Shown: piece by piece, positions 27,501 through 57,982 of the stretch
Position numbering within the stretch: position 1 is the stretch's first letter
Layout of the letters: each line of letters begins with the position of its first letter
DNA from: an uncultured Planctomycetia bacterium
GTDB taxonomy: Bacteria; Omnitrophota; Gorgyraeia; Tantalellales; Tantalellaceae
Direction: 5' to 3'
DNA: 64,000 bases
NCBI GenBank assembly: GCA_964527765.1
Contig: CAZGQR010000010.1
Span: forward strand, 1,680 to 65,679
The notes under the pieces: generated by a model
Told to the model about the DNA's origin: nothing
What the model saw: the letters and a program-made list of their open reading frames with translations, nothing else
Databases searched by the model: none
Position numbers and translations under genes: made by a program

Positions 27501-30500
27501 CAATGGGGAGGCGCGCGATCTTCTGGCCGAGATAGAAAAGCTTGAAACAACGGTGATCCTCAGGAATATTTTCGGGAATGAACGCTACGGCCGAAAGGTG
27601 ATAGACCAGATATTCCTGTACGGGGAGATCACTCTGGACGAAACGGCCAGGGTCGAGAACGGGACCATGCTTGACGGCCGCGCGGGTGAGATCGTTCTTC
27701 TTGGCCAGACACGCGTGCAGAAAGGTGTTCATATCAAGGGAGTCAAAGCGATAGACACGCGCTTTGCCGGCAAGAAGTATCTTGATATTTACCATTATGA
27801 ACAACCGGCTCATGAGAAAATCGCGTTCTTTAACTCGTCATTTGCGAATTCCTGTGTCGAATATTCCGGAAAGGTCGAGAACTCAACGGTCATCAATTCT
27901 TATATCACCAGCGGCGCGGAAGTGATCGAGTCCGACGTGAAAGATGAGATCGTGGTCGGCGATGATGAAATAATAGGACGGCGCCTGGATGTTAAGAATG
28001 ATATTCTGTCGACATCGATCGAGGCGGAAGAAGGAGTATGTGAATATACCCCGGGCGCTTACCGTCTGGAAGAAAAGATGCCCAGGGACCGTGATGAGAT
28101 CAAGGGATATCAGGTTTCTTACGCCAGGAGGTTATACGGGAGATTTATTGATGACGAACTTATTTTAAACCGCATGCTGGAAGACACGAAACAGTTCCTG
28201 TACAGTAAAGTGATCGACAGGTTCACACTGCAGCAGATCAGGCGGTACATGATCGCCAAGATAATGGAAAATATCAAAGTGTATTATCAGGAACGCGAGC
28301 CCGATCTCCTTAAGGACTTCCGCCCGCTGGTAAATAATCTCAGGGCTTACGCGGAAATACCCATGAAAGACATAGCGGAACTGGATGCCGGAGACAAAGC
28401 GCGGGCGAGAGAGCTGTTCCGAAAAATGGCAATACAGGCGATCCGTTCCAATATTATAGATTTTTCCATGGATCCGAAAGCCTTTGACCTGGAGCTACTG
28501 TCGTCTGCGGGCAGCGGTGAAGGCAGGAACTTTGAAAAGTTTCTTGATAAATATACCAAAAAGGAATTGGGGATCGACGGCTTCGATCACTTCGAAGAAA
28601 TGGTCTTCGGCCCCCGCAAAGGAACCTTTTTGTTCTTCACGGATAACATCGGAGAGGCAGAATTTGACGCGTTGATATGGGGATTTCTTGCCAAAATGGG
28701 GCACACCGTGGTTGTTGCGGCAAAAGACGGGTTTTCCTTCGCGGATATCGATAACAAGGGAGTGGAAAGCATTGTAGAAGAGCACCCCCTGCTGAGAGAA
28801 TATAGAAATGCCGGCAGGATCAAAGTCGTCAAAAGCGGTTCCTTATCCGAGGGCGTTTTCCCTCATATGTTCGGCGAAGAACTTAGGGACGTTCTTAAGG
28901 ACAAGGGACTGATGGCGATCATTGCGAAAGGCCAGGCAAACCTATTCACACTTTCCGCCCGGAACAGGATCAAGGTCCCGGTTGTCGCAATGCTGCTGTC
29001 TAAATCGTTGACGTCGAATCTGGTGACCGGGATTTCTCCGGAAAAGGACAAGGACAAAAAAATCTTCTGGCCGATCGCAGCGGTGGTTCCGGGAGGAGCC
29101 AGTATAATGGACTACGAAGGGGAATTGGGTAATTTCGAGGGGACCATTGAACGGTTCGGCAGGCTGCACGAAGAGATCAAACGGACCAAAGAGTTGGATT
29201 ATTCCGAAATACCGGAGATAGCGGAAGGCCTCCTGGAGAGCAACATAAAGAGCGGTTTTCTAAAAAAAGAATACCGGAAAGGCGTAGCTGAGGAACCGGT
29301 GGAAAAAGGAGCGCCGATATACAAACTGTTGGACAGGTCGGACGACCCTTACGTCCAAAAGATAAGAAGTATTTTAAAGCTCAAGAAGGCATTCGCCTGC
29401 ACTTTATGCAGGATCCCGTATATGTCCAGAGAAGCCTCCAGGTCCATTACGAAATACTGGGAATTTTCTGTTAATCCCGAACCCGTGTTTGATTCGCAGA
29501 TCATCGCGATCCACCGCAGGCACATAAATCAGGGAGCGGTCAATGAGAATTACTATTTTGACATGTTTCGGATATTGGAGAACCTCGGAGAATGGCAGGT
29601 AAGCTGGCCCAGCAGGACCGGGACCAGGTTCCCGGAACATCTGCACGCGCACATGTTCAGACGGGAACGCCCCATGCCGGTAGAAGAGTATTCACTTGAA
29701 CCCATTTGCCGGGACAGGAAAGGTAAAGGTGTGGTTTATTCCGTAAAAGATTATCCGGACAGGGATCATGCCATAACTGCTTTTGTTGTCCCGGGAAGCA
29801 TGGAAAAGCCCGGTATATTTGCAAAGAGGTGCGCCGATCTTGAGACTATAATAAAGGGTTTTGGATACGATGTAGATAAGTTTATCACCAGAAGCAAGGG
29901 AGGAGAATTTAAGGTCTTTTTCTATCCCAGGATCGGCGGGCTCAGGAGCGATGTGGGGCCCGTTGACGTGAGCGGCATCTGGGTCCTCTCGAGAGAAGAA
30001 CAGTACAGGGATTTCAAGTTAGCGGATGTCTACGATCTTCTCTCGGAAACCACACTCAATATGTACAGTGCCAGTCACCAATCATTGGCTGATGCCGTCA
30101 AGAGACTTTTTTATGAATCCGAGGGCATAGGCCTCTTTCCGCCCAGCATGGACCTGCTTGTGACCGATAGGTGCAATCTGCATTGCAAGGTGTGCTGGGG
30201 GTCGTTCATGCCCAGGCACGAATCCGTAGGCACGGAAAAGCAGAAAAGGATGATAGATATCATGCATGAGAACGGTATGAGGCGTATGATCTTCACGGGC
30301 GGCGAGCCGCTTCTTGAAGCAAATCTGGCGGACCTGTTAAAGCACGCGAAGGAAAAAGGCATAACCACGCAGCTGTTTACGAACGGCCTGTTGATGGATG
30401 AGGCAAAAACCGATGAGATCATGCCGTACGTGGATATGATATCATTGTCGCTTGACGGGTATGATGACCAGACAAACAGCCTGAACCGAAAGCCCGGCCA

Positions 30501-33361: not shown

Positions 33362-33390
33362 TTGACTTTTCCTATGGTGTGTTATATACT
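33362..33390 (+). promoter_or_regulatory. Sigma70-like promoter for the 8.4-kb gene
   Basis: TTGACT at 33362-33367, a 17-nt spacer, TATACT at 33385-33390. It sits in the 208-nt AT-rich spacer between the giant genes. AGGAGA lies 7 nt upstream of ATG 33473. Confidence 0.5.
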
Positions 33391-33472: not shown

Positions 33473-36400
33473 ATGATAGGTGATGGATTCAAAAAATCCC
33501 TGTTCTTCAGGATAGTGAACCTTTTTCTGGTATTTACATTCTCGTTCTACAACATAAGTTTTGCCGTCACGGAGAAGAATGTCAAACCGTCCGATTTTGC
33601 GGATCCCCGGTCAGCTTTATCCGTCGATGATATAGGTATCGCTATCGACTGCGGTACCATAAAAAGTAAATATTCCGGTGATTCCGGCAGGACGGTCGTG
33701 CACATACAGGACGCTCACTGTAATTACGAAGCCCAATCCAATATAAACAGGATGCTGGCACAGCTGACGAAGGAATGCGGGATCAATATCATATCCGTAG
33801 AGGGTTCAGAGGGGATCATCGATACCGCGTGGTTCAGAGCTTTTCCTGATTCGGAGATACGCAAGGAAGTCGCTACTTATTTCATGAAAAAAGGCGAGAT
33901 CACCGGCGCCGAGTTCTTTTCGATCATTTCAGACTATAAAGGCACCATTTTTGGCGCTGAGACACGGGACTATTACGTGAAGAACCTGAAAGCCTTTACG
34001 GAAGTATATCCTTATAAGGATATGATGGAGAAATATTTTATCAACACGCGCACGATAGCCGATCGTTTAAAATCAATAGTTTATCCTCCCAAATTAAAGG
34101 AACTGGATTCCAGGATAAAAGCGTTTGATGACAAGGAACTGGAATTAAGTGATTACGCCGATTATCTTAACAGAACCGCCTCGAAGAACAGGGTCAACCT
34201 GAAGGATTACCCCAATTTCGAGAAGCTGATCCAGACACTTGAGTATGAGAAAAAGATCGATTTTGACATAGTGGACCAGGAGCGGAGCGAATACATCGAT
34301 GCCCTTGGCAAGAAGTTGTCCAAGGAGGAAATGACGGAACTGGTGACCCAGAGTATAAGGTTCAAGAAAGGCCATATAAAAGCGGTGGAATTCTATTTTT
34401 ATCTCAGGGAACTGGCGAAAGAACATGATATTCCCATGATGCAGGAATATCCGAACCTGTTCTATTACTATATCTACACAAAACTCTATGACGGCATAGA
34501 TAACGAGAGCCTGTTCAGGGAGATCGATACCGTCGAGGCACGGCTCAAGGAAAAACTTTTCGGGGACGAGGTCCAGGAGAAACTGGACAAATACGCCTCC
34601 ATGCTCGATATGTACGTGGACCTTGTGAACATCGAGCTGACGAACGAGGATTACGATCTTTTTAAAACCTACTCGAAGGAATTCTCGCTCGGGGATGTAT
34701 TGGCCTTTTTGGAAAAATTATGCGACAAATACAGCCTGAACTACGCCATTGACGGCGTGCCCGCGCAGATCAGCGAAAACCTCCCCAATATGGTCGATTT
34801 CTACGAAATAGCCATGAAGAGGGATAACGCCCTTATCGATAATACCCTCGATCAGATGGACAGGGAAGGAAAGAACAGGTGCGTGCTGATCGCCGGAGGC
34901 TTTCATACGAGGGGCATAAAGGATATCCTTGAGAAAAAAGGCGTTTCTTACGTAGTGGTCACCCCCAAGATAACCAAGGACGTCGAGACCCCTTATATAA
35001 AGGTATTGACCAACCAGAGGACCTCTCTGGAGGATATAATCACCGAAAGCGCCGTCATGCCCGGCCCGGAAATAACGACGTCGCGTGAAGCGATCGCCCG
35101 GCCCAAAGCCGATATGCTTTCTCCCTTGCTCCGCGTGGCCTACACTGTGCCGCTCTATCTCGAGAAGACCGAAGACCTGAAGACCCTTTCGGATACGATC
35201 GGACCGATTGAAGGCAGGACGCTTCTTGAAGTTACCGAGGAATCGTATCGGGAAATGGTCAGCGCCCTTGTAAGGGGATGGCTTGTGAAGGTAAAGCAGA
35301 ATGCGGCTCCGGAAGTATGGGCCAAAGCAGTGGAGAACTGGCCGCTGCTTCTCGGAGTGTACCTGAAGAAATACGAAGAAGCCGCGAAAGAAGAAGGCAT
35401 AGAACCGGCAAAGGGGCTCCGCGTCCCCGAAGTCGTATTGACCGAAGATGCCCTGGGTACCATAAGCGAGGAATTCAGGGGGATATTCAAGGGCGTGGTC
35501 ATAGCAGAAAGGACTACGCCGGGAACGGAAGCGTTGAGAACTTACCGGGGGTACGCGCCTCTTACGCCCGCTCAGCACAAGGGTGTCAATAAGGTGATCG
35601 AAGATCTGTTCAGCTCTGTTGAGAGCCCTCAAGAAACCGTTACACTTGAGATCGAAGGCGAGAAATACCCGATCAAGGTATTCGCGCTCGAAGGTTTCAA
35701 GGAGGCCATTGAAGCATACAATGAAAGTCCCGCTTATGGCGAAACAATACCTCTGGACATAGAAGTCCACCCGGGTCGCGGGCCCTCTCACAGACTGGAA
35801 GGCGCCAGCATGTACATGTCCCTGGACGGTTATAACGCCCTGACAAAAGAGCAAATAAAACGCTTGGCATTACATGAGCTTTATCATATACTTTTTGTAA
35901 GCCAGGGGGAACAGGCTGATGAAGAAGCCGTCATCGGGGCCATGAAAGGCGATGACCTGGATGATATTCGCAAGGAACTTGCCAAGGTTGAAAGAAAAAG
36001 AGCCGAGGAGAAGCTGAAAGTGGAAGAAGATAGAATAATCTCCGAAACACCCGGCGCACGGGAAGTGCTTGACAACATAGGATTTGCCACCAGCGCGGGA
36101 GAAAAGGTCAAGATAGCCGTTGTCGTTTCCGGCAGTGAAGTGGACCAGGAGAACTGGCAGGAAAGGCTTGACCGGACAAGCTCCAACGTTTTTAACCCGG
36201 ACGGAAGTTCGCTTGTCCTTTCACTGCAGGAGAAGATCGGCGACAAGACCAGAGAAGGTAATTTTCTCGGGACACTGCTTGCCTACCGGCATATCAAGAA
36301 AGCGGCCGATAAAGCCGGTATCCCGTATAAGGATTACGTTACCATGATAGGCATGCTTTTCGGACGAGGCGAAAGGATGTCACCCATTACGCAGGCGGAA

Positions 36401-39400
36401 GGCGACCGTAAACCCGCTATTTCCGTTACTCCGGCAACTATGGAGATCAAAGGCAGGGAAGGGTCTTTAGCGGCCATTGAAGAGGCGCTGCTGTATTTTA
36501 CCCCCGTCGTCCAGTATCTCGAAAAAAGAGGGTTCAGGGGCGTCCTGGACAAGTGGGGAGATGAGACAGAGATAGCGTCTATAGACTTAACGAGAGGGCC
36601 CGGGGAAGGCGAGTCTCTCGCACAGCAAGATGTCATGAAAGTCATTTCTGTTTTAAAACTAGATGATATTACCGATCCGCAGGCAGTAGAAAAAGATTGG
36701 GTCATTTTTGACGAAGATGGCAATATGCTGGCCCAGGTATCAAGGAATAAAAATGGAGCAGACGCCCTTCGCAAAGATTTAAAAGCCAAAATGGGCGAAT
36801 TCGGCATAGATCTGGATTATGTCGGCATAAGCCTTGGTCCAGTGGCTGTCTCTTATGATGTGCTGGACATAGCTTCGGAAGTTTTCGCGGAAGAGATAGA
36901 GAAGGAAGGCATTTATTTCGACTTTGATCCCTATTTTCTTATGGCACTTGCAATGGAGGATGATCCCGCCAAGTGGGATGCTGCCGTCAAGGCGGATAAG
37001 GGACTCCAGAAGCTTGTGGACATGGTTTCCGGCTTTTTCGGGAAAGTCCAGAATATAAAGAAAATATTTAGGGAAAAGCATGGAAGGGATCTCAACCTGA
37101 AGATATTGGATCTCGGCGGTAATGTGTACTGGGCCGATATAGGCCAGCACAGCGCCATGAGGGAGAAGTATCTCGCTCTTAACGATAAAGGAGCCCGCGG
37201 CGTTATCGCCAGGAAAGTCGCGAACATCCCGGGCGTAAGGGACGAGAACGGCAATATTATCGTCGATTCCGAGATAAGTCCCGACGTCAAAGTAAAGGAT
37301 TCCGTTATCGTGAACAGCAAGATCACCGGAAAAGGGACGATAACAGGAAGCGTTATCATGGATTCGGAGCTTGATAATGTCAAGATAACCGATGCTTTTG
37401 CCGTCAGGAGCGCGCGTCTGGGCAATACCGTGCTGGAGAAAAAATGCGGCATTTATAATTCGCTGGGCGTGAATGATCTTACTCTGAAGACCATAGAAAA
37501 GATCGAGGACGGAGAAACCAAGACTTACGGCATGCGGCACATATCTGTTTTGACGAGCAAGGGAAAGATCGATATGGAAGTCGCTGAAAATACGGATCTG
37601 AGAGATAAGAAAAACACATATAACGTGCCGATTTTCGGTAATGACATTTCCTTTGAGGACGCGTATAATGAGATGTTCGGCGTAAGTATGGAGGAACTTG
37701 AAAGAAGAAGGACGGAAGAGTTGGCCAAGCTAAACAGGATAAAGGAAAAGACCAAAAAGTTCGAGCAACTAAGTTTCGGCACCAGCGGCCTCAGGGACAC
37801 GGTTGAGAACATGACCGATATGGAGTGTTATATCAATGCGAGAGGCTTTATCAGGTCCCTCATTGACCGGGGCTTACTGGAAAAAAAGGATACCATCTCT
37901 ATAGCCGGCGATCTAAGATCAAGTACCCCCAGGATCATGAACGCGGTCGCGAAGGCGGTAGAGGATGAAGGAAAAACCGGTGGGTACGAGCTTAAGCTTG
38001 ATTTTTGCGGATTTATCCCGAGTCCGACCGCGGCCTTGAGAGGAAGGACAAAAGGCAGTATCAGCATCATGGTTACCGGCAGTCATATTCCTTTTAACAT
38101 GAACGGCGTTAAGTTCTATAAGAAGTCCGGTGAGGAAGTTCTTAAGGGGCTTGATGAGCGGACCATTCTTGAGGGTGTTGCCGGTGTGAGAAAAGAAGAA
38201 TACGCAAGATCATGGGAGGAATCCCTTTTTGACGAAAAAGGCATGTTCAAGTCCTCTCCAGAGTATGACCTTACGGCCAATCAAAGTGAAACGGAAGAGC
38301 AGTACGTTAATAGGTATCTGAATGCTTTTCCCAAGGATGCTCTTGCAGGCGTTGAGGTCGTTCTTTATGAACATTCGGCGGTCGGAAATGACATATTGAA
38401 AAAGATCTACGAACGCTTGGGCGCCAAGGTGATCGCTGTGGGAAAGAGCGAGAAGTTCATAGCTATAGATACGGAGAAGATCACTCCGACTTTGAAAGAT
38501 ATATTGGAAAAGTATTCCAATCCAGTGACGCTTTCAGAAGAGCTTACCAGCGAGAGGGAATGGACAATACAAATGATTACAAAAAGGCCTTTTGCAGTTA
38601 CCTTTACTGATGGCGACAAGGATAGGCCGGGCTTAGCAGATGAAAACGGAAACTTCCTTACAGGCGATAAACTGGGGCTTCTGGTCGCCAAACTGCTAAG
38701 GCCGACTTTTGCCGCTATTCCCGTAAGCAGCAACAAGGGCGTTGTCGAAGAGCTTAGGAAAATGGGAATAAAAGTGGTCCTGACAAAGATCGGATCGCCG
38801 CACGTTATTAAGGCCATGAACGATGAACTTGCCGTGAACCCGGATGCCAAAGCTTTGGGCTGGGAAGCCAACGGAGGATTTTTGCTCGGCAGCACGTTCG
38901 CTATCCCGGGAGGCGGGGAGCTGACAAGACTTGCCACCAGGGATGCCGTATTGCCCCTGGTTTCCGCGATATACCTGTCCAAAAACCCGGGCAAAATCCT
39001 GGGCAAAAAAGGCCCCATGAAGATGTCTGAACTTATCGACACGGAGATCCCCCATATTTACAATTACGCAAGCGTGTACGACAAGTTCCAAGAGCGTTTC
39101 AAGACGGACAGGGCTACCGCGCTCGCCACGATGAGGGCGATAGTGCCGGCACTGGCGCCGAAACTGAACGACGACAAGGTAGTCGCTATTGATTTTGATG
39201 AAGGAACAGCAGAAAGGCGCATAGAAAAGGAAATAAACGGTGAGAAGGTCCTCACCTTCGAGACCGAAAAAGTAAAGATCGACGACCTGTACAAAAAAGA
39301 TGATCCGGATCTGAAAGAATGGTATCGCGTCAAGGAAAAACTCGGGGAAGTGTTCACCTCCGAGGCGGGATTTGCCGAAGTAAAGTCCGTGAACATCCTT

Positions 39401-41875
39401 GACGGCGTGCAGGTGACTTTCAGAAACGGCGAGATCTCGCATCTCAGGCCTTCCGGGAATGCTCCCGAATTCAGGAACTATGCCATGGCCGCCGGGCAGG
39501 AACGCGCCGAAGAGATCGTAGCGGTTGGCGTGGAAGACATTATTCCTGTGTTGGCTGATGAAGTCTGGGCCGCCAGGGCACATAAGACCGTTGAGCGTGC
39601 GTTGACGCCCGGCATCTATACGGTCAGGACGATGCCGCCCAAGGATACACCGGCTGACAGGGTTCTCTATGCTATACTGCAGAGAAGGGAACCCGTGGGC
39701 GTTCTGCCCTATAAACAGCCCAAAGTCTGGGGTGTTAACGGTATCGGTGAATACTGGTACGGCGCCGAGATCGGCGAGAAAAGTTCGGTCGCCAAAGTGG
39801 GCGAAGATGCTGTCCCGATGGCTGAACTGATGCAGTACGCGCCGGAGGAAATACTGGGTGAGGCGGTAACGAGGAATTTCGGGGAAAGACTTCCCTTGGT
39901 GAAGATATTGACACCGAAAGACAGGCTATCACTGCAGTTCCATGATGCCAAGAACGAACTCTGGATAGTGACGGGTATTGACAAGTCCCTGGCGGGAAAA
40001 ACACCTTCGATCATAGTGGGCTTTAGCCAGAAAGCCGTCGATAAATACGGCAGGGACGTAACAAAGGAATACGGCAAGGCTCTTGAGAATTACGGCGAGA
40101 AACTTAACAAACTTATTGATCTGCTTGAGACGCGCGGTTATAAAGATCTGCTCGGGGAGACCAGGAATGTGGTCGTAGCGGCACAGCGTGTCATGGGGAA
40201 AGAACACGATATCAAGGAAGCGCTTGGGCAACTGTATAGCGCGCGCGGTCAGCTTGAAAGCTTTTATAACTACCGCGCAGTCAAAGTCGGAGACGTTGTT
40301 CCTGTGCCGGCGGGGACCTTACACGCTTTGACGGCAGGGATAGAGGTCGTGGAACCGCAGATAGCCGGCCCGACGCAGTCTCTCGAAGACGGAGCAACAT
40401 ACCCGGTGAGATATTATTTTCCCGGATACCAGAGACCCGGCGCGCAGAAGAAACTGGACATTGACAGGGTAGGCGAAATGAACCCCGCGGTCGTAAGAGA
40501 ATCCGAACCGGAGATCATCGCCGAAGGGGTAGAACGCCTTCCGGGCATGTTCGAAAGGAAGGGTCTGGAGGTACACAGGATAACGCTCGAGAAAGGGCGC
40601 GAGCTGAAGGTTCCTGAATCTACCAGTTTTCATACCCTGGTCACGGTGAAGGGTAAAGCCAGGGTTATTATCGGCGAGAAGACTTACGATATACCGAAGG
40701 CCTCTCCCGGCGGAGAGATGCTTATCATACCCGCGACTGTTGCAAGTTATAAGATCATTGCGGATGAACCGTCGCAGGTCATTGATACGTTCACGCCGGT
40801 CGCCAAGACCCAGGAGGTTCCCGTGGCTACGGGCGATAAAGTGCCGGGGACAGACGAACATGAATGGACAGAGGGAATCGTCTATGCGGACTATGAGAAT
40901 GATATGGTCCCCGATACCTACGTTCGGCTCGACATCATCGGTGTCAGGGAAATGCGGGATATGAAACAGGAGCACACGCTTATTGTGCAGAGCGGCAAAG
41001 TTAAGATTACCTCGCCCGTTGAAGAAATACCCCCGTTGGATGAGGGCCAGAGCTATACATTTAAAGCGGATTATCCCGATTATAGAATAGTCAGGTTAAG
41101 CGACCAGCCCGCCCGGGTCAAGATCGATTTCGAGAATACCAGAGCGGAAAATATAGTTTATGCGACTTATGATATGGTCAGGAAGCATATAGATACCATT
41201 AAAGCGGCGCAGATCGACCTGATCCTGCCCCAGGAGATGTTCGTTCCGGGCGGCAAGAATACGCCCGGGTCCGCCAAGTGGGAACAGGAGCAGCTGCAGA
41301 AATTCATAAGCGACAGGATAAGGATCACCACGTACAGCGCGCGCATGGGGCTTGAGGAAGCTGCTGGCAAATCGATCAATGAAGGAGCCGTGGGCATTCT
41401 GGTGGCGACCGAGTCTAACATTAGGGAAGCCGACAGAAATAACGCCAAGATTCAGGATTTTCTGTTCGGGAAAAAAGGAACAGTAAGAGTGCTTGCCATC
41501 CCGGATATCGACAAGGCGGAAGAGCTGGAAGGCAAGGGATGGTATTTCAACAGGGAAGTCGAGGGAACAGCTCTTCTTCTGGCAGCCGTTACCCCTGAAC
41601 AGATAAAGACGAAGGGCGAAGGGAACGCGGCGGATGACCTGCAGAAGCTTATGACACAGCTGACCGGACAGGTGATCCCGAGGGAATATCTGTATTACAT
41701 GCTTTCACATGACGAGATGGGCGACGCGAGAAACAAGCTTCCTGCCGCTTTTAAGGAAGATACTTTCGGCTGGCTGCTCTTTCTGGTGAACAATCTTCTT
41801 CTTAAGATGCCGATCAGGCCTTTTGACGCGACTGACCAGCTTTACCAGAGACGGAAGGTCATGTGGTCCGTCTAA
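33473..41875 (+). CDS. Giant fusion protein (2,800 aa). N-terminal anchor + conserved N-module; NDP-sugar pyrophosphorylase-like + LbH; alpha-D-phosphohexomutase (PMM/PGM); type-I phosphomannose isomerase (PMI); C-terminal region.
   Basis: Uninterrupted 8,403-nt ORF with a good SD. The domain motifs are listed in the sub-features below. Confidence 0.9.
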   Translation: MIGDGFKKSLFFRIVNLFLVFTFSFYNISFAVTEKNVKPSDFADPRSALSVDDIGIAIDCGTIKSKYSGDSGRTVVHIQDAHCNYEAQSNINRMLAQLTKECGINIISVEGSEGIIDTAWFRAFPDSEIRKEVATYFMKKGEITGAEFFSIISDYKGTIFGAETRDYYVKNLKAFTEVYPYKDMMEKYFINTRTIADRLKSIVYPPKLKELDSRIKAFDDKELELSDYADYLNRTASKNRVNLKDYPNFEKLIQTLEYEKKIDFDIVDQERSEYIDALGKKLSKEEMTELVTQSIRFKKGHIKAVEFYFYLRELAKEHDIPMMQEYPNLFYYYIYTKLYDGIDNESLFREIDTVEARLKEKLFGDEVQEKLDKYASMLDMYVDLVNIELTNEDYDLFKTYSKEFSLGDVLAFLEKLCDKYSLNYAIDGVPAQISENLPNMVDFYEIAMKRDNALIDNTLDQMDREGKNRCVLIAGGFHTRGIKDILEKKGVSYVVVTPKITKDVETPYIKVLTNQRTSLEDIITESAVMPGPEITTSREAIARPKADMLSPLLRVAYTVPLYLEKTEDLKTLSDTIGPIEGRTLLEVTEESYREMVSALVRGWLVKVKQNAAPEVWAKAVENWPLLLGVYLKKYEEAAKEEGIEPAKGLRVPEVVLTEDALGTISEEFRGIFKGVVIAERTTPGTEALRTYRGYAPLTPAQHKGVNKVIEDLFSSVESPQETVTLEIEGEKYPIKVFALEGFKEAIEAYNESPAYGETIPLDIEVHPGRGPSHRLEGASMYMSLDGYNALTKEQIKRLALHELYHILFVSQGEQADEEAVIGAMKGDDLDDIRKELAKVERKRAEEKLKVEEDRIISETPGAREVLDNIGFATSAGEKVKIAVVVSGSEVDQENWQERLDRTSSNVFNPDGSSLVLSLQEKIGDKTREGNFLGTLLAYRHIKKAADKAGIPYKDYVTMIGMLFGRGERMSPITQAEGDRKPAISVTPATMEIKGREGSLAAIEEALLYFTPVVQYLEKRGFRGVLDKWGDETEIASIDLTRGPGEGESLAQQDVMKVISVLKLDDITDPQAVEKDWVIFDEDGNMLAQVSRNKNGADALRKDLKAKMGEFGIDLDYVGISLGPVAVSYDVLDIASEVFAEEIEKEGIYFDFDPYFLMALAMEDDPAKWDAAVKADKGLQKLVDMVSGFFGKVQNIKKIFREKHGRDLNLKILDLGGNVYWADIGQHSAMREKYLALNDKGARGVIARKVANIPGVRDENGNIIVDSEISPDVKVKDSVIVNSKITGKGTITGSVIMDSELDNVKITDAFAVRSARLGNTVLEKKCGIYNSLGVNDLTLKTIEKIEDGETKTYGMRHISVLTSKGKIDMEVAENTDLRDKKNTYNVPIFGNDISFEDAYNEMFGVSMEELERRRTEELAKLNRIKEKTKKFEQLSFGTSGLRDTVENMTDMECYINARGFIRSLIDRGLLEKKDTISIAGDLRSSTPRIMNAVAKAVEDEGKTGGYELKLDFCGFIPSPTAALRGRTKGSISIMVTGSHIPFNMNGVKFYKKSGEEVLKGLDERTILEGVAGVRKEEYARSWEESLFDEKGMFKSSPEYDLTANQSETEEQYVNRYLNAFPKDALAGVEVVLYEHSAVGNDILKKIYERLGAKVIAVGKSEKFIAIDTEKITPTLKDILEKYSNPVTLSEELTSEREWTIQMITKRPFAVTFTDGDKDRPGLADENGNFLTGDKLGLLVAKLLRPTFAAIPVSSNKGVVEELRKMGIKVVLTKIGSPHVIKAMNDELAVNPDAKALGWEANGGFLLGSTFAIPGGGELTRLATRDAVLPLVSAIYLSKNPGKILGKKGPMKMSELIDTEIPHIYNYASVYDKFQERFKTDRATALATMRAIVPALAPKLNDDKVVAIDFDEGTAERRIEKEINGEKVLTFETEKVKIDDLYKKDDPDLKEWYRVKEKLGEVFTSEAGFAEVKSVNILDGVQVTFRNGEISHLRPSGNAPEFRNYAMAAGQERAEEIVAVGVEDIIPVLADEVWAARAHKTVERALTPGIYTVRTMPPKDTPADRVLYAILQRREPVGVLPYKQPKVWGVNGIGEYWYGAEIGEKSSVAKVGEDAVPMAELMQYAPEEILGEAVTRNFGERLPLVKILTPKDRLSLQFHDAKNELWIVTGIDKSLAGKTPSIIVGFSQKAVDKYGRDVTKEYGKALENYGEKLNKLIDLLETRGYKDLLGETRNVVVAAQRVMGKEHDIKEALGQLYSARGQLESFYNYRAVKVGDVVPVPAGTLHALTAGIEVVEPQIAGPTQSLEDGATYPVRYYFPGYQRPGAQKKLDIDRVGEMNPAVVRESEPEIIAEGVERLPGMFERKGLEVHRITLEKGRELKVPESTSFHTLVTVKGKARVIIGEKTYDIPKASPGGEMLIIPATVASYKIIADEPSQVIDTFTPVAKTQEVPVATGDKVPGTDEHEWTEGIVYADYENDMVPDTYVRLDIIGVREMRDMKQEHTLIVQSGKVKITSPVEEIPPLDEGQSYTFKADYPDYRIVRLSDQPARVKIDFENTRAENIVYATYDMVRKHIDTIKAAQIDLILPQEMFVPGGKNTPGSAKWEQEQLQKFISDRIRITTYSARMGLEEAAGKSINEGAVGILVATESNIREADRNNAKIQDFLFGKKGTVRVLAIPDIDKAEELEGKGWYFNREVEGTALLLAAVTPEQIKTKGEGNAADDLQKLMTQLTGQVIPREYLYYMLSHDEMGDARNKLPAAFKEDTFGWLLFLVNNLLLKMPIRPFDATDQLYQRRKVMWSV
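33680..34960 (+). other. Conserved N-terminal module (paralog of 3760..5070)
   Basis: VVHIQDAHCNYEAQ ... SVEGSEGIIDT ... FPDSEIRKEVATYFMKKGEITGAEFFS ... LIAGGFHTRGIKDILEKKGVSYVVVTPK. Confidence 0.7.
36100..37450 (+). other. NDP-sugar pyrophosphorylase-like module with C-terminal left-handed beta-helix
   Basis: KIAVVVSGSE ... MLFGRGERMSPITQAEGDRKPAISV is a UDPGP-like G-rich loop. The LbH hexads are IVDSEISPDVKVKDSVIVNSKITGKGTITGSVIMDSELDNVKITDAFAVRSARLGNTVL. Confidence 0.5.
37760..39500 (+). other. Alpha-D-phosphohexomutase (phosphomannomutase/phosphoglucomutase) module with all four family motifs
   Basis: FGTSGLRD (N-terminal GTSGLRG). TGSHIPFNMNGVKF is the active-site Ser loop T(A/G)SHNPxxxNG.K. 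FTDGDKDRPG is the metal loop DGDGDR. GWEANGGFLLG is the sugar-binding GEESGG loop. RPSGNAPEFRNY is the phosphate-binding R.SGTEP..R.Y loop. Confidence 0.85.
39700..40500 (+). other. Type-I phosphomannose isomerase (ManA-like cupin) module
   Basis: RLPLVKILTPKDRLSLQFHDAKNELW parallels ManA LPFLFKVL...LSIQVHP.K..E, which carries the Zn-ligand Gln/His/Glu. VVPVPAGTLHALTAG parallels the ManA C-terminal IPAGTPHAY His ligand. Confidence 0.6.
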
Positions 41876-41927
41876 CGATATGCCGCCGCGCGGTGCAACC
41901 GCGCTTTACGTAAGTATATAAAAATAA

Positions 41928-41959
41928 AAAGGGTAGGTGAATAGCCTGCCCTTTTCATT
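41928..41959 (+). terminator. Intrinsic terminator after the 8.4-kb gene
   Basis: Stem GGGTAGG(41931-41937) / CCTGCCC(41945-41951) with one G·U pair, a 7-nt loop, then TTTTCATT. An additional GC hairpin lies at 41887-41904. Confidence 0.5.
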
Positions 41960-42121
41960 CTATATAAATATATACACCTATATAAATGTAAGTTATATCG
42001 GCATGCGTTTAAACCTTTTATAAGGTCTTTATAATATGATAAGTTGACAGGGTAAGCGAATTTTTGTAAAATAAGTTCGCCTTTCTTCCTGTTCGAATAT
42101 CCGGAAAACCAAGGACGGTTA

Positions 42122-43030
42122 ATGGAAAAAGAATCCTTTTTACAGAAAATTAACAAACAAAAGGTTTCGTATCTCTTCATAGCCTTACCGGCTATATTAT
42201 TCTTCATATTTCAGCTGGCACCGGTTTTCATATCCTTCTTCTGGTCTTTTACCCGATACGACGTTGTGCATTCGCCGCGGTTCGTTGGTCTGGCCAACTA
42301 TAAAAACATACTTTTTAATGATCCCCTGTTCTGGAAAGCGATCACCAATACGGTCATATATGTTATAGGGGTGGTCCCGGTCGGTATTTGTATTTCACTT
42401 CTTCTCGCCGTCGCCATAGATCAGAAGATAAAATTCAAGAATTTCTTTAAATCGATATTCTTCCTGCCGACAGTTACCGCGATAGTTGCCGTGTCGGTTA
42501 TATGGAAATGGCTGTACGCGGGAGGAAAATACGGTCTATTGAATTACATGGTCATTAAGCTGGGTTTCCAGCCTATTGACTGGTTAGCGAGCCCTACATG
42601 GATCTTGCCTGCCATAATGATAATGTCCATCTGGGCCGGACTTGGGTATAACGTGATCCTTTTTTTGGCCGGCCTTCAGACGATCCCGCACATGATGTAC
42701 GAGGCGGCCGAGATAGACGGGGCGGGTTTCTGGAGAAAATTTTTTAACGTGACGCTGCCGCTGCTGAAACCGACCATTGTTTTCGTGACCATGATGAGTT
42801 TCATTTTCAGCTTTCAGGTCTTCGAACAGGTGTATATCATGACGAGCGGACATGGCGACATAGGCGGCGTTTTGAACAGCGGCCTTACGATCGTCGCGTA
42901 CCTTTACGATAAAGGTTTTCAGAAGTTTCAGATGGGATACGCTTCGGCGCTGGCGTATATAATATTTCTGTGCATATTTATGCTTCCAATGATCAACAGG
43001 CGCCTTATGAGGGCACACGTGGAATACTAA
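42122..43030 (+). CDS. Sugar ABC transporter permease (MalF/UgpA-like inner-membrane component)
   Basis: Six or more hydrophobic helices and the EAA-loop motif EAAEIDGAGFWRKFFNVTLPLLKP. Confidence 0.8.
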   Translation: MEKESFLQKINKQKVSYLFIALPAILFFIFQLAPVFISFFWSFTRYDVVHSPRFVGLANYKNILFNDPLFWKAITNTVIYVIGVVPVGICISLLLAVAIDQKIKFKNFFKSIFFLPTVTAIVAVSVIWKWLYAGGKYGLLNYMVIKLGFQPIDWLASPTWILPAIMIMSIWAGLGYNVILFLAGLQTIPHMMYEAAEIDGAGFWRKFFNVTLPLLKPTIVFVTMMSFIFSFQVFEQVYIMTSGHGDIGGVLNSGLTIVAYLYDKGFQKFQMGYASALAYIIFLCIFMLPMINRRLMRAHVEY

Positions 43031-43069
43031 AAACGCGATATGTAATACTGGAAGGAGCTTGCGCGGGTC

Positions 43070-43921
43070 ATGGTCAGACGGGATGCAGATATCAGAAGAG
43101 ATTCATTTACGGTCAAGACGTTCATATATATCTTTCTGATCGCCGGCGCCGTTACCATGGCCGTGCCTTACGTGTGGATGTTCGTGACATCCATCAAACC
43201 CCTGGAGGAAATACAATCCTATCCTCCGAGTTTTATCGTTCACAACCCCACCCTGGAACCGTACAAGGATCTTTTTCACATGGTACCGATGGTCAGGTAT
43301 CTGTTCAATAGTCTCTTTGTCGCGGGTTCCATCACCCTTTTTAATGTCTTTGCGACGTCCCTTGCGGGCTATGCCTTTGCCAAGCATAAATTCTGGGGAA
43401 GGGATAAGCTGTTTTTCATATTTCTCGGGTCACTCATGATACCATGGCAGGTCAACATAATCCCCGGATTCGTTATTGTAAAAAAGCTCGGCTGGCTGAA
43501 CACGTACAGTGGTCTTATCATACCGGCCATGGCATGGTGCGCGTTCGGGATATTTCTTAACCGTCAGTATATCTACAGCATTCCGGATGATCTTATTGAT
43601 GCGGCAAGGATAGACGGGTGCAGTGAATTTATGATATACCGCAAGGTTATATTACCCCTGATAAAGCCGGTCATCGCGACACTGGCAATATTCACTTTTT
43701 TGCAGCAGTGGAACAATTTTGTATGGCCCCTGGTCATTATCCACACGAGCAATATGCGGACGATCCCGCTGGCGCTTGCCGTTCTTACCGGCCAGTTCGG
43801 CGCGAACTTCGGCATGGTCATGGCCGGAGCGGTGATCGCGACATTGCCGATGCTTGTCGTGTACTTATTGTTCCAGAAGTATATAATAAAAGGCATAGCG
43901 ATGACGGGCTTGAAGGGTTGA
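43070..43921 (+). CDS. Sugar ABC transporter permease (MalG/UgpE-like)
   Basis: PYVWMFVTSIKP N-terminal signature and the EAA loop DAARIDGCSEFMIYRKVILPLIKP. The start is set at ATG 43070; an internal start is not excluded. Confidence 0.75.
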   Translation: MVRRDADIRRDSFTVKTFIYIFLIAGAVTMAVPYVWMFVTSIKPLEEIQSYPPSFIVHNPTLEPYKDLFHMVPMVRYLFNSLFVAGSITLFNVFATSLAGYAFAKHKFWGRDKLFFIFLGSLMIPWQVNIIPGFVIVKKLGWLNTYSGLIIPAMAWCAFGIFLNRQYIYSIPDDLIDAARIDGCSEFMIYRKVILPLIKPVIATLAIFTFLQQWNNFVWPLVIIHTSNMRTIPLALAVLTGQFGANFGMVMAGAVIATLPMLVVYLLFQKYIIKGIAMTGLKG

Positions 43922-43933
43922 AGAAAGGAAACC

Positions 43934-45574
43934 ATGAAGAGAGCGACTGTTTTGTCCGTTCTACTGTTACTTTTGGCGTATCCATTATCCGGCTGCGGGA
44001 CGAAAGAAGAGCCCGTTTCGGAAGTAAAATACGAGACCGCAAAGCCGGCGAGCGATACGGCTCTTTTGATCGAGACGGTCGAGGTCCCGTCCGGCGATCC
44101 GCTGGTCTACCTCAAGGCCGTGGATGCCAGGGCATCCAGCTTCGATGAGACCCCCGATTGGGCCCCCGAACCGGATCCCATGGCGCCTGTTGACGGGGAT
44201 ATGCTCACGCGCTGGTCCAGCGATTATAATCCGGGCGATCAATGGATCTATTTTGACCTTGGAGAGGGCAGCGTGGTGAGCGATGTCATCATCAGGTGGG
44301 AAAGAGCGTATGCTACCGATTATGAGATACTGGTTTCAAATGATGCTGACGCCTGGAAAGGGGTTTATCGCGAGAAAAACGCGCTAGGCGGAGTTACGGA
44401 AGCCGTCTTCACCCCCGTAAGATGCCGTTATGTGAAGGTGCTGGGAACAGGAAGAGCCAACAAGGATTGGGGTATTTCCATATGGGAGGCCGAGATATAC
44501 GGCCCGGAGAGTCAAAATCCGCATGCGTCCCTGACGAAGGAAGGTTATCTCAGCAGGGGGGGAGATGAAACAAAGAAAAAAGAAACGGAGAAACTTATGG
44601 AAGAACAAGCCGCTCCGGTGATCCCGATAGGCGAAAAAGAGTTCCAAAAGGGCGTCGTCTATACATCATGGATGGCGGATGAACTGTCCTTCCCGGCGTC
44701 CGATCTGACCCTTGTGCATATCAAAAAGATAGGATTTGATACGGTGTCTATCATGGTCCCTGCTTATCAGGAGAAGATCGATTCCAAGGTGATCTATATC
44801 AACGACAAACCCGGCGGTGATACGCCTACCATGGACGCGCTTAAGCATGCCGTTCAGTCCTGCCACAAACTGGGCCTGCGTGTCATGATAAAACCCCATG
44901 TCGATCCCAGGACGGACGAAGCGCGTATCAACATACTTCCCTCCGAAGAATGGTTCGACAGTTATGAGGAGTTCGTGATCAAGTACGCCCGGTTCGCTCA
45001 GGAAAACGGCGCGGAACTTTTTTCCGTGGGAACAGAACTTGAAGGAACCACTTTTGAAGCGTGGACCGACAGGTGGAACCGGGTCATCGATAAGGTCAGA
45101 GAAGTCTATAAAGGCCTCTTGACGTATTCGGCGAACTGGACGGAGTACAAGGAAGTGCCGTTCTGGGATAAGATGGATTTCATCGGGATCGATGCCTATT
45201 TTCCGCTGGCGGGGAACGACAATCCTTCCCCGGAAGAACTTAAGAATGCCTGGGAAACACACGCCGATGAAATAGAGAAGTGGCTTAACGAAAAAGGATT
45301 AACGGAAAAGGGTGTCCTTCTTACCGAGATAGGATACCCGTCCGCCGACGGCGCGGGCCGTCAACCCTGGGTGGCCGTATCCAAGCAAGAGGACCAGCAG
45401 GAACAGGCTGATTGCCTTGAGGCCATGTTCACGGTCCTGAGCAAACGGCCATGGTTCAAAGGATATTATATCTGGCAGTATTTCCCCCAGGAAAGGTGGA
45501 GCCCGCTGGGATTTACCGTGAAAGGGAAAAAAGCTGAGGAAGTGATCAAAAATTGGTTAAAAGTCAGTGAATAA
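43934..45574 (+). CDS. Secreted lipoprotein: F5/8 type C (discoidin) carbohydrate-binding domain + clan GH-A TIM-barrel glycoside hydrolase (beta-mannanase-like guess)
   Basis: Lipobox LLLLAYPLSGCG. The discoidin-like block is GDMLTRWSSDYNPGDQWIYFDLGEGSVVSDVIIRWERAYATDYEILVSND. The clan GH-A catalytic pair is the acid VGTELEG and the nucleophile LLTEIGYPS. Confidence 0.6.
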   Translation: MKRATVLSVLLLLLAYPLSGCGTKEEPVSEVKYETAKPASDTALLIETVEVPSGDPLVYLKAVDARASSFDETPDWAPEPDPMAPVDGDMLTRWSSDYNPGDQWIYFDLGEGSVVSDVIIRWERAYATDYEILVSNDADAWKGVYREKNALGGVTEAVFTPVRCRYVKVLGTGRANKDWGISIWEAEIYGPESQNPHASLTKEGYLSRGGDETKKKETEKLMEEQAAPVIPIGEKEFQKGVVYTSWMADELSFPASDLTLVHIKKIGFDTVSIMVPAYQEKIDSKVIYINDKPGGDTPTMDALKHAVQSCHKLGLRVMIKPHVDPRTDEARINILPSEEWFDSYEEFVIKYARFAQENGAELFSVGTELEGTTFEAWTDRWNRVIDKVREVYKGLLTYSANWTEYKEVPFWDKMDFIGIDAYFPLAGNDNPSPEELKNAWETHADEIEKWLNEKGLTEKGVLLTEIGYPSADGAGRQPWVAVSKQEDQQEQADCLEAMFTVLSKRPWFKGYYIWQYFPQERWSPLGFTVKGKKAEEVIKNWLKVSE

Positions 45575-45595
45575 TAGCAAAAAGGAGGTCGTAAG

Positions 45596-46186
45596 ATGAA
45601 GAAAGTTCTATTGGCGCTCGTGGTGATGGGTCTCTTCTTCGTTGGAGCGGTTATACACGCTGAAGAGGAAACCGTTATTTTCAGTTTTGAAAACGGGCTG
45701 CAGGGATGGGAGATCCCGGACTGGGCGTATGAAAAACCGGATCACGTGCAGAAAGAGATCAACCCCTCTGACAAGTATGCCTCGCAGGGCAGAAGCAGCC
45801 TGGAGATGGATGTAGAGTTTCCCGGGGGACGATGGACAGGCGCTATAATAGAGATCATGCAGTATTTTGACTGGACCGATTACAGCAAGATAGCGTGTGA
45901 TATCTATCTTCCGAAGGATGCCCCGCTGGGATTGAAAGGTAAGATGATATTGACGGTCGGGGACAGCTGGAAGTGGGTCGAGCAGAGCAAATCTTATGCT
46001 CTGAAACCCGGCGAATGGGTAACGCTGACAGCCGACCTGAAGCCCGGCAGCATTGACTGGAGGAGGGTACAGGTCGATGATGCGTTTCGCCAGGATGTAA
46101 GAAAGCTCGATATAAGGGTGGAGTCAAACAACAGGCCCGCGTATACCGGTCCTATTTATATCGACAATATAAGAGTTATAAAGTAA
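45596..46186 (+). CDS. Small secreted carbohydrate-binding-module-like protein (paralog A)
   Basis: Signal peptide MKKVLLALVVMGLFFVGAVIHA. Beta-sandwich-like motifs FPGGRWTGAIIEIMQY ... DIYLPKDAPLGLKGKMILTVGDSWKWVE ... GPIYIDNIRV. It is a clear paralog of 46226..46936. Confidence 0.55.
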   Translation: MKKVLLALVVMGLFFVGAVIHAEEETVIFSFENGLQGWEIPDWAYEKPDHVQKEINPSDKYASQGRSSLEMDVEFPGGRWTGAIIEIMQYFDWTDYSKIACDIYLPKDAPLGLKGKMILTVGDSWKWVEQSKSYALKPGEWVTLTADLKPGSIDWRRVQVDDAFRQDVRKLDIRVESNNRPAYTGPIYIDNIRVIK

Positions 46187-46225
46187 GACCCGAAGCATGT
46201 AACCTAAAAAAAGAAAGGAAGAAGG

Positions 46226-46936
46226 ATGAGATATCTCCGCATAAGCGCCTTGGGGGCGGTCGTGGCAGGTCTTTGTGTTATTACACTTAGCCTTAATGGT
46301 TGCGGCAGGCGGGAAGAAGGTCCCACGGGAGAAGTTAAAGCGATCGACGCAAAAACAAAGGATAAACCGCAGGAGAAAGAAATGCCCGTGCCTTCCACTG
46401 CACCCATAACCGAAGAGAGGACCTATTACGATTTCGAGACGTCTGATCTGAACGGTTGGGAAATTCCGATGTGGGCTCTTGATAAGACCGATTATGTGGC
46501 CAAGGGTGCCGAGCTTTCCAGGGAAGTAGCCTCTCACGGGGACGCCAGCATGAAAGTCACGACGGATTTTCCGGGCGGACTCTGGTCGGCGGCATTGGTC
46601 GAGATACAGCAATATCTGGTCTTGAGCTCTTACCGGGTAGTGAGGGCGGATATATATCTTCCGGAAGATGCCCCTATAGGGCTTAAAGCGAAGTTGATAT
46701 TGACCGTGGGGAATAACTGGAAGTTCGTTGAAATGAGCCGTAGCGCGCCGCTTATACCCGGGGAGTGGGTCACCATCACCGCAAATATCGAACCCGGCAG
46801 TTACGACTGGAAGAGGGTCGTTCCGGATGAGAAATTTGCGGAGGATGTTCGAAAGATAGCGATACGAATAGAGTCTAACCGGAAACCAAAATATTCCGGA
46901 CCCATATATATTGATAATGTCAGGGTCGGCAGGTAA
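46226..46936 (+). CDS. Secreted lipoprotein, carbohydrate-binding-module-like (paralog B)
   Basis: Lipobox ITLSLNGCG. FPGGLWSAALVEIQQY ... DIYLPEDAPIGLKAKLILTVGNNWKFVE ... GPIYIDNVRV. Confidence 0.55.
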   Translation: MRYLRISALGAVVAGLCVITLSLNGCGRREEGPTGEVKAIDAKTKDKPQEKEMPVPSTAPITEERTYYDFETSDLNGWEIPMWALDKTDYVAKGAELSREVASHGDASMKVTTDFPGGLWSAALVEIQQYLVLSSYRVVRADIYLPEDAPIGLKAKLILTVGNNWKFVEMSRSAPLIPGEWVTITANIEPGSYDWKRVVPDEKFAEDVRKIAIRIESNRKPKYSGPIYIDNVRVGR

Positions 46937-47118
46937 AGACCGGGTATTTGCTTTCGGGTGCCGGGCGCGGATGGTAATATTTCGGCTCCCGACACCCGAA
47001 AGCTGAATTTTTTTTGTTTCTTTAATCAGAACTTATTAAATGTTATTTTAACTCGCGCTTATTGCTTGACTTTGCCGGACTTGCTGAGTGGTGTGTTCAT
47101 TAAACGAAAGGAAAGACC

Positions 47119-48222: not shown

Positions 48223-48270
48223 TATCGGCGGTGCGATAAGCAGTGTCTTTTATGTAAAGGAGCGCTTGTT

Positions 48271-49530: not shown

Positions 49531-49549
49531 CCGGAGAAGAGATCTCATA

Positions 49550-55857: not shown

Positions 55858-55858
55858 G

Positions 55859-56244
55859 GGGGGTGACAGGTCTCGACATGTTCTCGTGATCTGAGGGCAG
55901 CATGCAGAGGTTGTCAGGAGGCCTCTTTAAAAACCTGGCAAAAACACAAACGCAGACTACAATCCAGTAGCCGAAGCCGAGTCAATCTTGGCTGAGGATG
56001 CGTTAAATGTTCCCGCATATGCGGGAGCGAGTCCTTTAGTAAGTGCCTTGGGATACTAATAGGGCTACAATCACGCAAGGTCTCTTGAGGTAATACCTCT
56101 TAACCTCAAGCAGTATAAAGGGGCTGCTCCCGGGAAGTGTCCCGTTTACCGGATTTCCCGGGAAAAGACAAAGGTGAACTAAGCATGTAGATACTCTTCG
56201 GTCGGAGTCCATGGACCCGGGTTCAAGTCCCGGCACCTCCACCA
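55859..56244 (+). ncRNA. ssrA: tmRNA (ssrA), ~386 nt
   Basis: 5' GGGGGUG pairs with 3' CACCUCC-ACCA, including the G3·U tRNA-Ala identity pair. The tRNA-like T-arm is GGACCCGGGTTCAAGTCCCGG. A 5' UCUCGAC box is present. It is adjacent to smpB. There is an internal in-frame UAA-UAG double stop at ~56056-56061. Confidence 0.85.
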
Positions 56245-56258
56245 TTTTTTCCAAGCAT

Positions 56259-57933: not shown

Positions 57934-57982
57934 GCAGTTTTCCGATATATTGAATGACTAATTTTAAACCCAGGAGGTAGAC

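Follow-up and report, generated by a model that had tools for sequence, protein, structure and literature searches.

Isomerisation of mannose 6-phosphate and nucleotidyl transfer to mannose 1-phosphate (Man-1-P) are combined in one polypeptide by the type-II phosphomannose isomerase-GDP-mannose pyrophosphorylases (PMI-GMP) AlgA, XanB and ManC, cytoplasmic proteins of about 480 aa in which a PF00483 domain is followed by a type-II cupin and which contain no mutase. Here, a stretch of 64,000 nucleotides (the window) from contig CAZGQR010000010.1 of assembly GCA_964527765.1, assigned to the phylum Omnitrophota, was analysed with a focus on an open reading frame (ORF) at 33473..41875 (+) that starts with ATG and encodes a protein of 2,800 aa. 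Like AlgA, XanB and ManC, this protein fuses an isomerase with a nucleotidyltransferase (NT). In contrast to them, its transferase is FKP-like, its isomerase is of type I, a phosphomannomutase (PMM) lies between the two, and the enzymes are enclosed by an N-terminal "head" and a C-terminal "tail". Membership of the type-II PMI-GMP enzymes was rejected, as neither PF00483 nor PF01050 was matched by the query. The ORF is a genuine, intact gene of a modular head-cargo-tail protein of Omnitrophota, and the reading of its cargo as a mannose-activation trio that serves as a mannose hub is given, as a whole, a probability of about 0.6.

Two further systems are close to the protein under study. FKP of Bacteroides fragilis (PDB 9IIS/9IIT), an L-fucokinase and GDP-fucose pyrophosphorylase, likewise fuses consecutive sugar-activation steps; the NT module described here lacks the kinase domain, is 13% identical, and the specificity of FKP is not transferable to it. 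The giant and long "multi-enzyme metabolic cluster" proteins of Omnitrophota (Archaeovorin-type) share with the query the phylum, an N-terminal signal or transmembrane (TM) segment and embedded phosphoglucomutase (PGM)/PMM and sugar-phosphate enzymes. Compared with the proteins of the two preprints surveying them (10.1101/2023.11.21.568195; 10.64898/2026.06.07.730766), the query differs in its length of 2.8 kaa, which is below the size thresholds of these surveys, and in having no internal TM segments. According to West-Roberts et al. 2023 (bioRxiv 10.1101/2023.11.21.568195), the N-terminal regions of the giant Omnitrophota proteins "generally lack identifiable domains". As one variant of cargo, the fusion belongs to a very large and modular family of Omnitrophota proteins, whose general existence has already been published. 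The TIKI/Ere head, the head-cargo-tail frame, the C-terminal motif and the split-gene counterparts were not found in the accessible parts of these two preprints, and the literature search yielded no paper pairing Omnitrophota with Tiki. It also revealed no description of a natural trifunctional PMI-PMM-pyrophosphorylase or of a stand-alone PMM-PMI fusion of the kind described below. In total, the TIKI-like head, the frame with its C-terminal motif, the FKP-like NT family and the fused, split and empty versions of the cassette were not found described. An earlier reading of the same DNA, made from the letters without database searches (the sequence-only reading), had proposed that such an architecture was undescribed; this holds in so far as no characterised trifunctional enzyme was found, but PGM/PMM domains in long Omnitrophota proteins and the puzzle of their localisation are already present in the two preprints.

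The ORF is preceded, a few bases 5' of its ATG, by a Shine-Dalgarno-like AAGGAG, and the G+C content is even (0.49–0.51) over the gene and its neighbours. Its coordinates are exactly those of the sequence-only reading, all motifs quoted there were located by residue in the 2,800-aa protein, and the module positions agree within about 0.2 kb. The parts of the protein occur as separate genes in related genomes, which could suggest that an error of assembly or gene calling merged separate genes into one long ORF. The probability of such an artefact is negligible, because the frame is unbroken across 8.4 kb, full-length orthologues with 49% (P0003) and 32% (P0039) identity keep the module order, and all three modules are present in 7 of the 120 best matches. 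In addition, two sources and two contigs have yielded a protein 100% identical to the query (P0001), and the ORF is therefore not a one-off assembly chimera.

The alpha-D-phosphohexomutase (ManB-like PMM/PGM) module occupies aa 1427-2030 (37751..39562, +) and has an insertion of ~130 aa in domain IV. It carries the motifs GTSGLR (aa 1436-1441), TGSHIP..NG.K (aa 1535-1547), DGDKDR (aa 1713-1718), GWEANGG (aa 1796-1802) and RPSGNAPEFRNY (aa 1992-2003), and the loops of the superfamily are present, namely the phosphoserine loop T-(A/G)-S-H, the metal loop D-x-D-x-D-R, the sugar loop E-x-N-G and the phosphate loop R-x-S-G-x-x-P..R. Residues Ser1537/His1538, Asp1713/1715/1717, Arg1718, Glu1798 and Arg1992/Ser1994/Arg2001 are kept in 54–56 of the 56 homologous modules. 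The module has the four-domain architecture of the superfamily; according to the Pfam analysis, PGM_PMM_I (2e-11, 44 bits) and PGM_PMM_III (2e-6, 28.3 bits) are above cut-off, and the NCBIfam model Arch_GlmM matches the module at 1e-32. The best solved relative is a "phosphomannomutase" of Brucella melitensis (PDB 4HJH), which aligns over its full length at 1e-58 and shares with the query the distinctive motif variants TGSHIP..NG.KFY, TDGDxDRP, G(F/W)EANGG and R.SGNAPE.R.Y; it differs from the query module in lacking the extra insertions, including that in domain IV, and in not being part of a larger protein. Mannose is a plausible sugar for this mutase from its context, that is, fusion or adjacency with a phosphomannose isomerase (PMI).

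The type-I PMI module (aa 2069-2444; 39677..40804, +) contains the motifs LSLQFHD (aa 2152-2158) and AGTLHA (aa 2280-2285). A profile built from 12 homologues matched the PMI of B. subtilis (1QWR) at 1.7e-13 and ManA of Salmonella at 3e-13. In the profile alignments, LSLQFHD, with Gln2155 and His2157, pairs with LSIQVHP of ManA, KNELW, with Glu2162, pairs with KTECW of 1QWR, and GTLHAL, with His2284, falls on GTLHAL of 1QWR. The four zinc ligands Q2155, H2157, E2162 and H2284 are invariant in the 12 homologues, down to 33% identity.

The sugar-1-phosphate nucleotidyltransferase module with a left-handed beta-helix (aa 853-1420; 36029..37732, +) bears the signature G964-R-G966-E-R968-M-S-P-I-T with K980. 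This GRGERMSPIT...K980 pattern, which reads GKGTRLSPLT in a divergent branch, has G, G, R, P, T and K invariant among the homologues. The fold consists of a GT-A-like core and a left-handed beta-helix and is FKP/GFPP-like. Comparison of the homologue profile of the NT with the PDB at the sequence level gave no match, and the module is not a sequence member of PF07959 or PF00483, all scores being below cut-off. The commonest form of the NT family is a stand-alone protein of about 550 aa; none of these proteins has a Pfam domain and, where named, they are called "hypothetical protein". They come mostly from metagenome-assembled genomes (MAGs) of Omnitrophota, with two Spirochaetales and two Pacearchaeota labels. 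The module is best treated as representing an unnamed sister family. The proposal of an NDP-sugar pyrophosphorylase with a beta-helix (NDP, nucleoside diphosphate) thus stands at the level of the fold, but the "GDP" of the proposed pathway is not supported, since the family is uncharacterised and FKP rejects Man-1-P.

Taken together, the three modules appear catalytically intact and of the families named in the sequence-only reading, and the chemistry predicted for them in one polypeptide fits consecutive steps from fructose 6-phosphate (Fru-6-P) to NDP-hexose. That reading had named two outcomes that would speak against it. The first, assignment to unrelated families, is contradicted by the matches to Arch_GlmM, to manA TIGR00218 (9e-12, PMI module) and to 4HJH. 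The second, loss of the catalytic residues, is contradicted by their conservation in the mutase and by the invariant ligands of the PMI. Inactive pseudo-enzymes or carbohydrate-binding scaffolds within a structural surface protein would be in line with the several Pfam and NCBIfam scores that are far under the equivalog cut-offs and with large insertions such as that in PGM domain IV. This explanation is considered very improbable and was rejected, because all tested catalytic, metal- and phosphate-binding residues are conserved in homologues of 25–60% identity and the stand-alone orthologues have normal enzyme size. The sequence-only reading of three modules and an anchor was incomplete in another respect, as the protein has another ~1,200 residues, which make up a conserved head and tail, with the enzymes as interchangeable cargo.

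Evidence that the three enzymes belong together was obtained by comparing related loci. A chromosomal order is conserved in which a giant gene is followed by a variable element and then by a mannan locus with ABC (ATP-binding cassette) transporter and GH113 (glycoside hydrolase) genes. In the window and in L001, which contains the 49% identical orthologue, the variable element is a single fused protein. In L004 it is a 2,968-aa protein (P0022, 38% identity) of the type head..PGM-PMI-tail, followed by three separate genes that encode, in this order, an NT (583 aa, 47% identical to the query module), a PMM (570 aa, 38.5%) and a PMI (386 aa, 54.6%), all without a signal peptide; the stand-alone PMI resembles the PMI module of the query more closely than it does the fused PMI encoded in the same genome. 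In L085 the element is an "empty" protein of 1,069 aa which, from its real start, consists of the leader MFTKGRISVLAKTVSMFLVLAFSLYNVSLA/VPE, a head (65% identical to aa 17-676) and a tail (30% to aa 2446-2800). It is followed by a terminator-like hairpin, a stand-alone NT (552 aa, 58%) and, 16 nt further, a PMM-PMI fusion gene (L085 9676-12525; 949 aa, 48% identity, no signal peptide), next to which the mannan locus begins; a near-consensus promoter-like site, with no terminator, lies ahead of the ABC permease there. As the trio is either fused or adjacent in the same order, NT, PMM and PMI would act together (Rosetta-stone evidence), and the fused, split and empty versions mean that the head-tail frame has gained or lost the cassette.

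The beta-mannan utilisation locus of the window (42122..50782, +), which looks complete and was delimited by Pfam and the N-termini of its genes, encodes two ABC permeases, a lipoprotein with GH113 and F5/8C domains, two CBM27-like proteins (CBM, carbohydrate-binding module), a second GH113 protein, a ROK regulator with an N-terminal helix-turn-helix (HTH) and a solute-binding lipoprotein. No ATPase or kinase was found in the window, nor was a GH130 mannoside phosphorylase, a possible catabolic source of Man-1-P. The locus adjoins the large gene or the split genes in four loci (window, L001, L004 and L085), although the large protein has diverged to 38–49% identity. With respect to transcription, a promoter-like site TTGACT-17-TATACT (33362..33390, +; a consensus scan match only) lies within the 208 nt that separate the ORF from the giant gene upstream. 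A strong terminator-like hairpin with a 12-bp stem and a T-rich tail (41927..41955, +) is located 52 nt past the stop codon of the 2,800-aa ORF, and downstream of it there is a near-consensus promoter ahead of the ABC permease (42044-42072). These predicted signals suggest separate transcription of the gene and the mannan locus.

The mannose pathway reading, strengthened by the gene-order evidence, is plausible. The cassette would represent a mannose hub that interconverts Fru-6-P, mannose 6-phosphate (Man-6-P), Man-1-P and NDP-mannose and that connects mannose from imported mannan with glycolysis as well as with an activated mannosyl donor. Man-6-P from mannan-derived mannose could be converted by the PMI to Fru-6-P, or by the PMM and NT to NDP-mannose, and the head-tail fusion would keep the three steps together at whichever site the head takes them to. 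All three steps are reversible, therefore the direction of flux is not fixed.

Several observations weigh against this reading. PGM_PMM_II and PGM_PMM_IV align within the mutase module below cut-off; PF20511 scores 20.5 bits with the single PMI sequence at a cut-off of 22; and the match to manA TIGR00218 reaches 44.8 bits at a curated threshold of 116.2. The family matches of the NT are also sub-threshold (PF07959, 0.019–0.027; PF00483, 0.007 in one homologue; glgC, 0.079), its closest solved relative, FKP, is just 13% identical, and FKP does not accept Man-1-P or Glc-1-P (PMC11982464); therefore, "GDP" and "mannose" rest on context and not on the NT module. Moreover, the genomes that show the synteny are fairly close relatives (heads 65–71% identical), so that it could be inherited gene order, and an operon with the mannan genes was rejected for the window, given the terminator-like hairpin and the fresh promoter between them. 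The link to mannan use is a conserved adjacency, not co-transcription.

As for the frame, the head module (aa 36-530; 33578..35062, +) has a hydrolase fold of the TIKI/erythromycin-esterase/ChaN type with a ~300-aa helical insertion. Pfam analysis of the head gave no match and the sequence profile produced only noise in the PDB (E > 0.3). The structural model of the head has a pLDDT (predicted local distance difference test) of 85, and the top fold-search matches all belong to the TIKI/TraB/erythromycin-esterase/ChaN superfamily (HopBA1, 9.5; Bcr proteins, about 9; TraB, 8.9; EreC, 8.8; ChaN, 8.3; RRSP, 7.7). The invariant residues are D80-x-H82, E110, R450 and GG-x-H478. The head shares with RRSP, HopBA1, EreC and Bcr135 the core fold, the His-x28-Glu pair and the C-terminal GxxH histidine, the 28-residue spacing of H82 and E110 being that of Bcr135 and RRSP. 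It differs in the helical insertion, in that no solved member was matched at the sequence level, and in having the invariant D80 where the 2His/2Glu set has its first Glu. Since the family His-Glu pair is reproduced with its spacing, the head is probably an active esterase or peptidase.

Between the head and the cargo lies a middle region (aa 531-852; 35063..36028, +) with an HPG motif (aa 765-767, including H766) and an HExxH motif (aa 801-805; H801, E802, H805; nt 35873-35887), both kept at 95% or more in 34 homologues with identities as low as 25%. Pfam analysis (five homologues, E up to 1) showed only faint DUF5700/PhageMetallopep similarity around HExxH (E 0.04–0.1). The region may be a zinc peptidase, as its motif suggests; the cargo-less protein of L085 lacks it. 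The tail module (aa 2446-2800; 40808..41872, +) gave no family match in the same Pfam analysis. It ends with ...LLLKMPIRPFD..DQL.QRRKVMWSV (aa 2766-2800, nt about 41768-41872), and the consensus ...LL.MPI(K/R)PFD..QL.QRRKVMWSV-COOH was found at the C-terminus of about 60 proteins of very different lengths. This motif has the appearance of a signal for sorting, docking or secretion.

Mapping the coverage of the query by its 120 best homologues showed aa 1-520 in all 120, aa 2500-2800 in about 60 and a variable middle. Besides the seven proteins with the full trio, at least 22 of them combine NT and PGM without PMI, and nine have PGM and PMI without NT. Alternative cargo includes PFK, PGK, PGI, UDPGP, NTP_transferase, CofD, class-II FBPase, transaldolase, ROK, HAD, epimerases and methyltransferases. 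An exhaustive hidden Markov model (HMM) search detected the head in 9,593 cluster representatives, 6,279 of them at E ≤ 1e-30. In all of the best 150 HMM matches the head starts 25–110 residues from the N-terminus, and these proteins range from about 420 to 6,030 aa, the shortest of which may be fragments. The homologues carry Omnitrophota source names. In the GTDB species genomes there are 394 head copies, and the 80 listed all come from Omnitrophota or from MAGs labelled "uncultured Planctomycetia". Head-bearing GTDB-representative MAGs with the title "uncultured Planctomycetia bacterium" include L006, L008, L011, L013, L018, L019 and others; these titles probably reflect a labelling issue in third-party annotation (TPA) assemblies.

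The gene upstream of the 2,800-aa ORF (3577..33264, +) encodes a giant of 9,895 aa with the same signal-like N-terminus and a head (aa 7-527) 28% identical to that of the query (E 3e-59). It does not have the ...RRKVMWSV ending. Its cargo comprises PRPP synthetase, 6PGL/GlcN6P isomerase, TPR, LigT, ARMT1, DUF4922, radical SAM and HD domains; the radical-SAM CxxxCxxC is intact at aa 8866, and there are ~10 strongly hydrophobic internal segments. In addition, a Pro-rich hydrophobic motif, SF(L/M)(P/L)LA(F/L)LPFxx-(L/V/I)VPGL(S/G)(I/V)(F/L).L...., occurs in three copies in the giant (aa 1339-1369, 1937-1967 and 3524-3554; about 7591-7683, 9385-9477 and 14146-14238). This motif could either span the membrane as a helix or form a membrane hairpin, and the choice decides whether the flanking enzyme domains share a membrane side. 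A placement of the cytoplasm-type enzymes of the giant on both membrane sides, based on the segment between PRPP synthetase and 6PGL, was rejected, since the Pro-rich SFLPLAFLPF.P-VPGL may form a hairpin.

The compartment in which the 2,800-aa protein acts was assessed from its N-terminus. A Sec-type signal peptide was assigned by rules to aa 1-31 (MIGDGFKKSLFFR / IVNLFLVFTFSF / YNISFA / VTE; 33473..33565, +), and aa 14-32 (Kyte-Doolittle 1.81) are the sole strongly hydrophobic segment of the whole protein. The leader has a basic n-region (K7, K8, R13), the 12-residue core IVNLFLVFTFSF and a polar YNISFA whose residues at -3 and -1 are Ser and Ala, respectively. This pattern is kept in 112 of 120 homologues, with a mean charge of +2.2 before the core and -0.7 after it, and the c-region ...N-(I/V)-(S/A)-F-A is conserved across homologues. 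A comparable, ordinary signal peptide is present in the CBM27-like protein encoded next to it. The N-terminal signal-anchor of the sequence-only reading is thereby disfavoured: the n/h/c layout and the small residues at -3 and -1 (S-F-A/V) fit, across the family, a cleavable Sec signal peptide, and it is such a peptide, not an anchor, that the N-terminus looks like. The topological paradox which that reading had raised persists, as the leader predicts the bulk of the protein outside the cytoplasm whether it is a signal peptide or a signal-anchor. The same puzzle was raised by West-Roberts et al. (10.1101/2023.11.21.568195) for PGM/PMM, TPI, GPI, FBPase and aldolase domains of Omnitrophota giants, and the 2026 preprint (10.64898/2026.06.07.730766) leaves it open.

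Judged from the leader, the odds of export to the periplasm or beyond are roughly even. The need of the enzymes for nucleoside triphosphates (NTP) and sugar phosphates, the signal-less state of the separately encoded NT, PMM and PMI, the intact radical-SAM motif of the same-headed sister giant and a leader sequence unusually conserved for a cleaved signal peptide all speak against export. They would be accommodated by a metabolon tethered to the cytoplasmic membrane, in which the leader serves as an anchor and the bulk faces the cytoplasm, supplying NDP-mannose for envelope glycans or directing mannose to glycolysis, with channelling. In its favour, all cargo enzymes of the family act on phosphorylated sugars or NTPs, stand-alone copies have no signal peptides, the intact radical-SAM motif of the sister giant needs cytoplasmic iron-sulfur (Fe-S) assembly, and the leader is conserved like a functional helix. 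Tethering is also compatible, according to the 2026 preprint, with the sugar-metabolism modules of long proteins that have TM segments only and no signal peptide, although the N-terminus of the query is instead signal-peptide-like. On the other hand, the charges of the n-region (about +2.2) and of the following residues (about -0.7) oppose this orientation by the positive-inside rule, the core of just ~12 residues with a polar c-region bearing S/A at -3 and A at -1 is typical of cleaved signal peptides, and the presence of fused and stand-alone PMM and PMI in one genome (L004) fits two compartments. Such tethering is a serious possibility, at somewhat below even odds.

A secreted or host-delivered enzyme array in a MARTX-like delivery frame, whose enzymes would use host sugar phosphates and nucleotide sugars either in the periplasm, extracellularly or within prey or host, for instance by converting GDP-mannose to Fru-6-P, seems unlikely. 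The conserved Sec-type leader, a motif at the very C-terminus that is conserved in the manner of sorting or secretion signals, and a head fold common to the injected effectors HopBA1, RRSP and PMT would agree with it, and the conserved HExxH could free the cargo. Published work on Omnitrophota also proposes a location outside the cell, the proximity of type II/IV secretion genes and life as a predator or epibiont. However, processing and delivery are conjectural, drawn by analogy, the cargo consists of housekeeping enzyme types and not of toxins, the TIKI fold is found in non-secreted proteins too (TraB, Ere), and the Fe-S and NTP-dependent cargo of sister proteins would be hard to supply outside the cytoplasm. 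The likeness to MARTX toxins is a functional analogy, not homology: in both, conserved N- and C-terminal regions surround variable, recombining catalytic domains, and the MARTX effector RRSP has the TIKI fold, as does the head. In contrast to MARTX, the query family lacks RTX repeats, a cysteine protease domain and the context of a type I secretion system (T1SS), and its cargo is central sugar metabolism. The more general idea of a phylum-wide export or delivery scaffold with interchangeable metabolic cassettes, released by the TIKI-type and HExxH peptidase activities and acting outside the producer's cytoplasm, either in its periplasm on host-derived metabolites or within the cell of a host or prey, as a metabolic counterpart of MARTX, is similarly speculative and judged improbable.

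Regarding the remaining genes of the window, a frame that is open from base 1 and runs off the window (1-3087, +) encodes the C-terminal end of a third large protein with a PEP-utilizers_C/HpcH domain; with the 9,895-aa and 2,800-aa proteins, it indicates at least three large multi-enzyme genes in tandem. At the other end, smpB is directly followed by the transfer-messenger RNA (tmRNA) gene (55859-56244; smpB/tmRNA region 55402-56244). From about 56 kb (56245-64000) the G+C content falls from ~0.49 to 0.38–0.44, and the genes there include a MerR-like gene, an MgsA_C-containing ORF and the R subunit of a type I restriction system (60367-63153). The stretch past the tmRNA gene looks like a genomic island inserted at that gene.

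Being 2.8 kaa long, free of internal membrane segments and equipped with three enzymes that are easy to assay, the protein provides a tractable handle on the function and membrane side of the multi-enzyme giants of Omnitrophota. The series from fused, through fused plus separate, to an empty frame plus separate enzymes offers ready natural controls for what fusion to the head adds. The analysis also points to an unnamed FKP-like nucleotidyltransferase family, whose ~550-aa stand-alone forms are annotated as hypothetical, and to a very large unannotated family of TIKI-like N-terminal domains of about 9,600 clusters. If the enzymes are indeed exported, this would overturn the assumption that the sugar-nucleotide metabolism of bacteria is strictly cytoplasmic.

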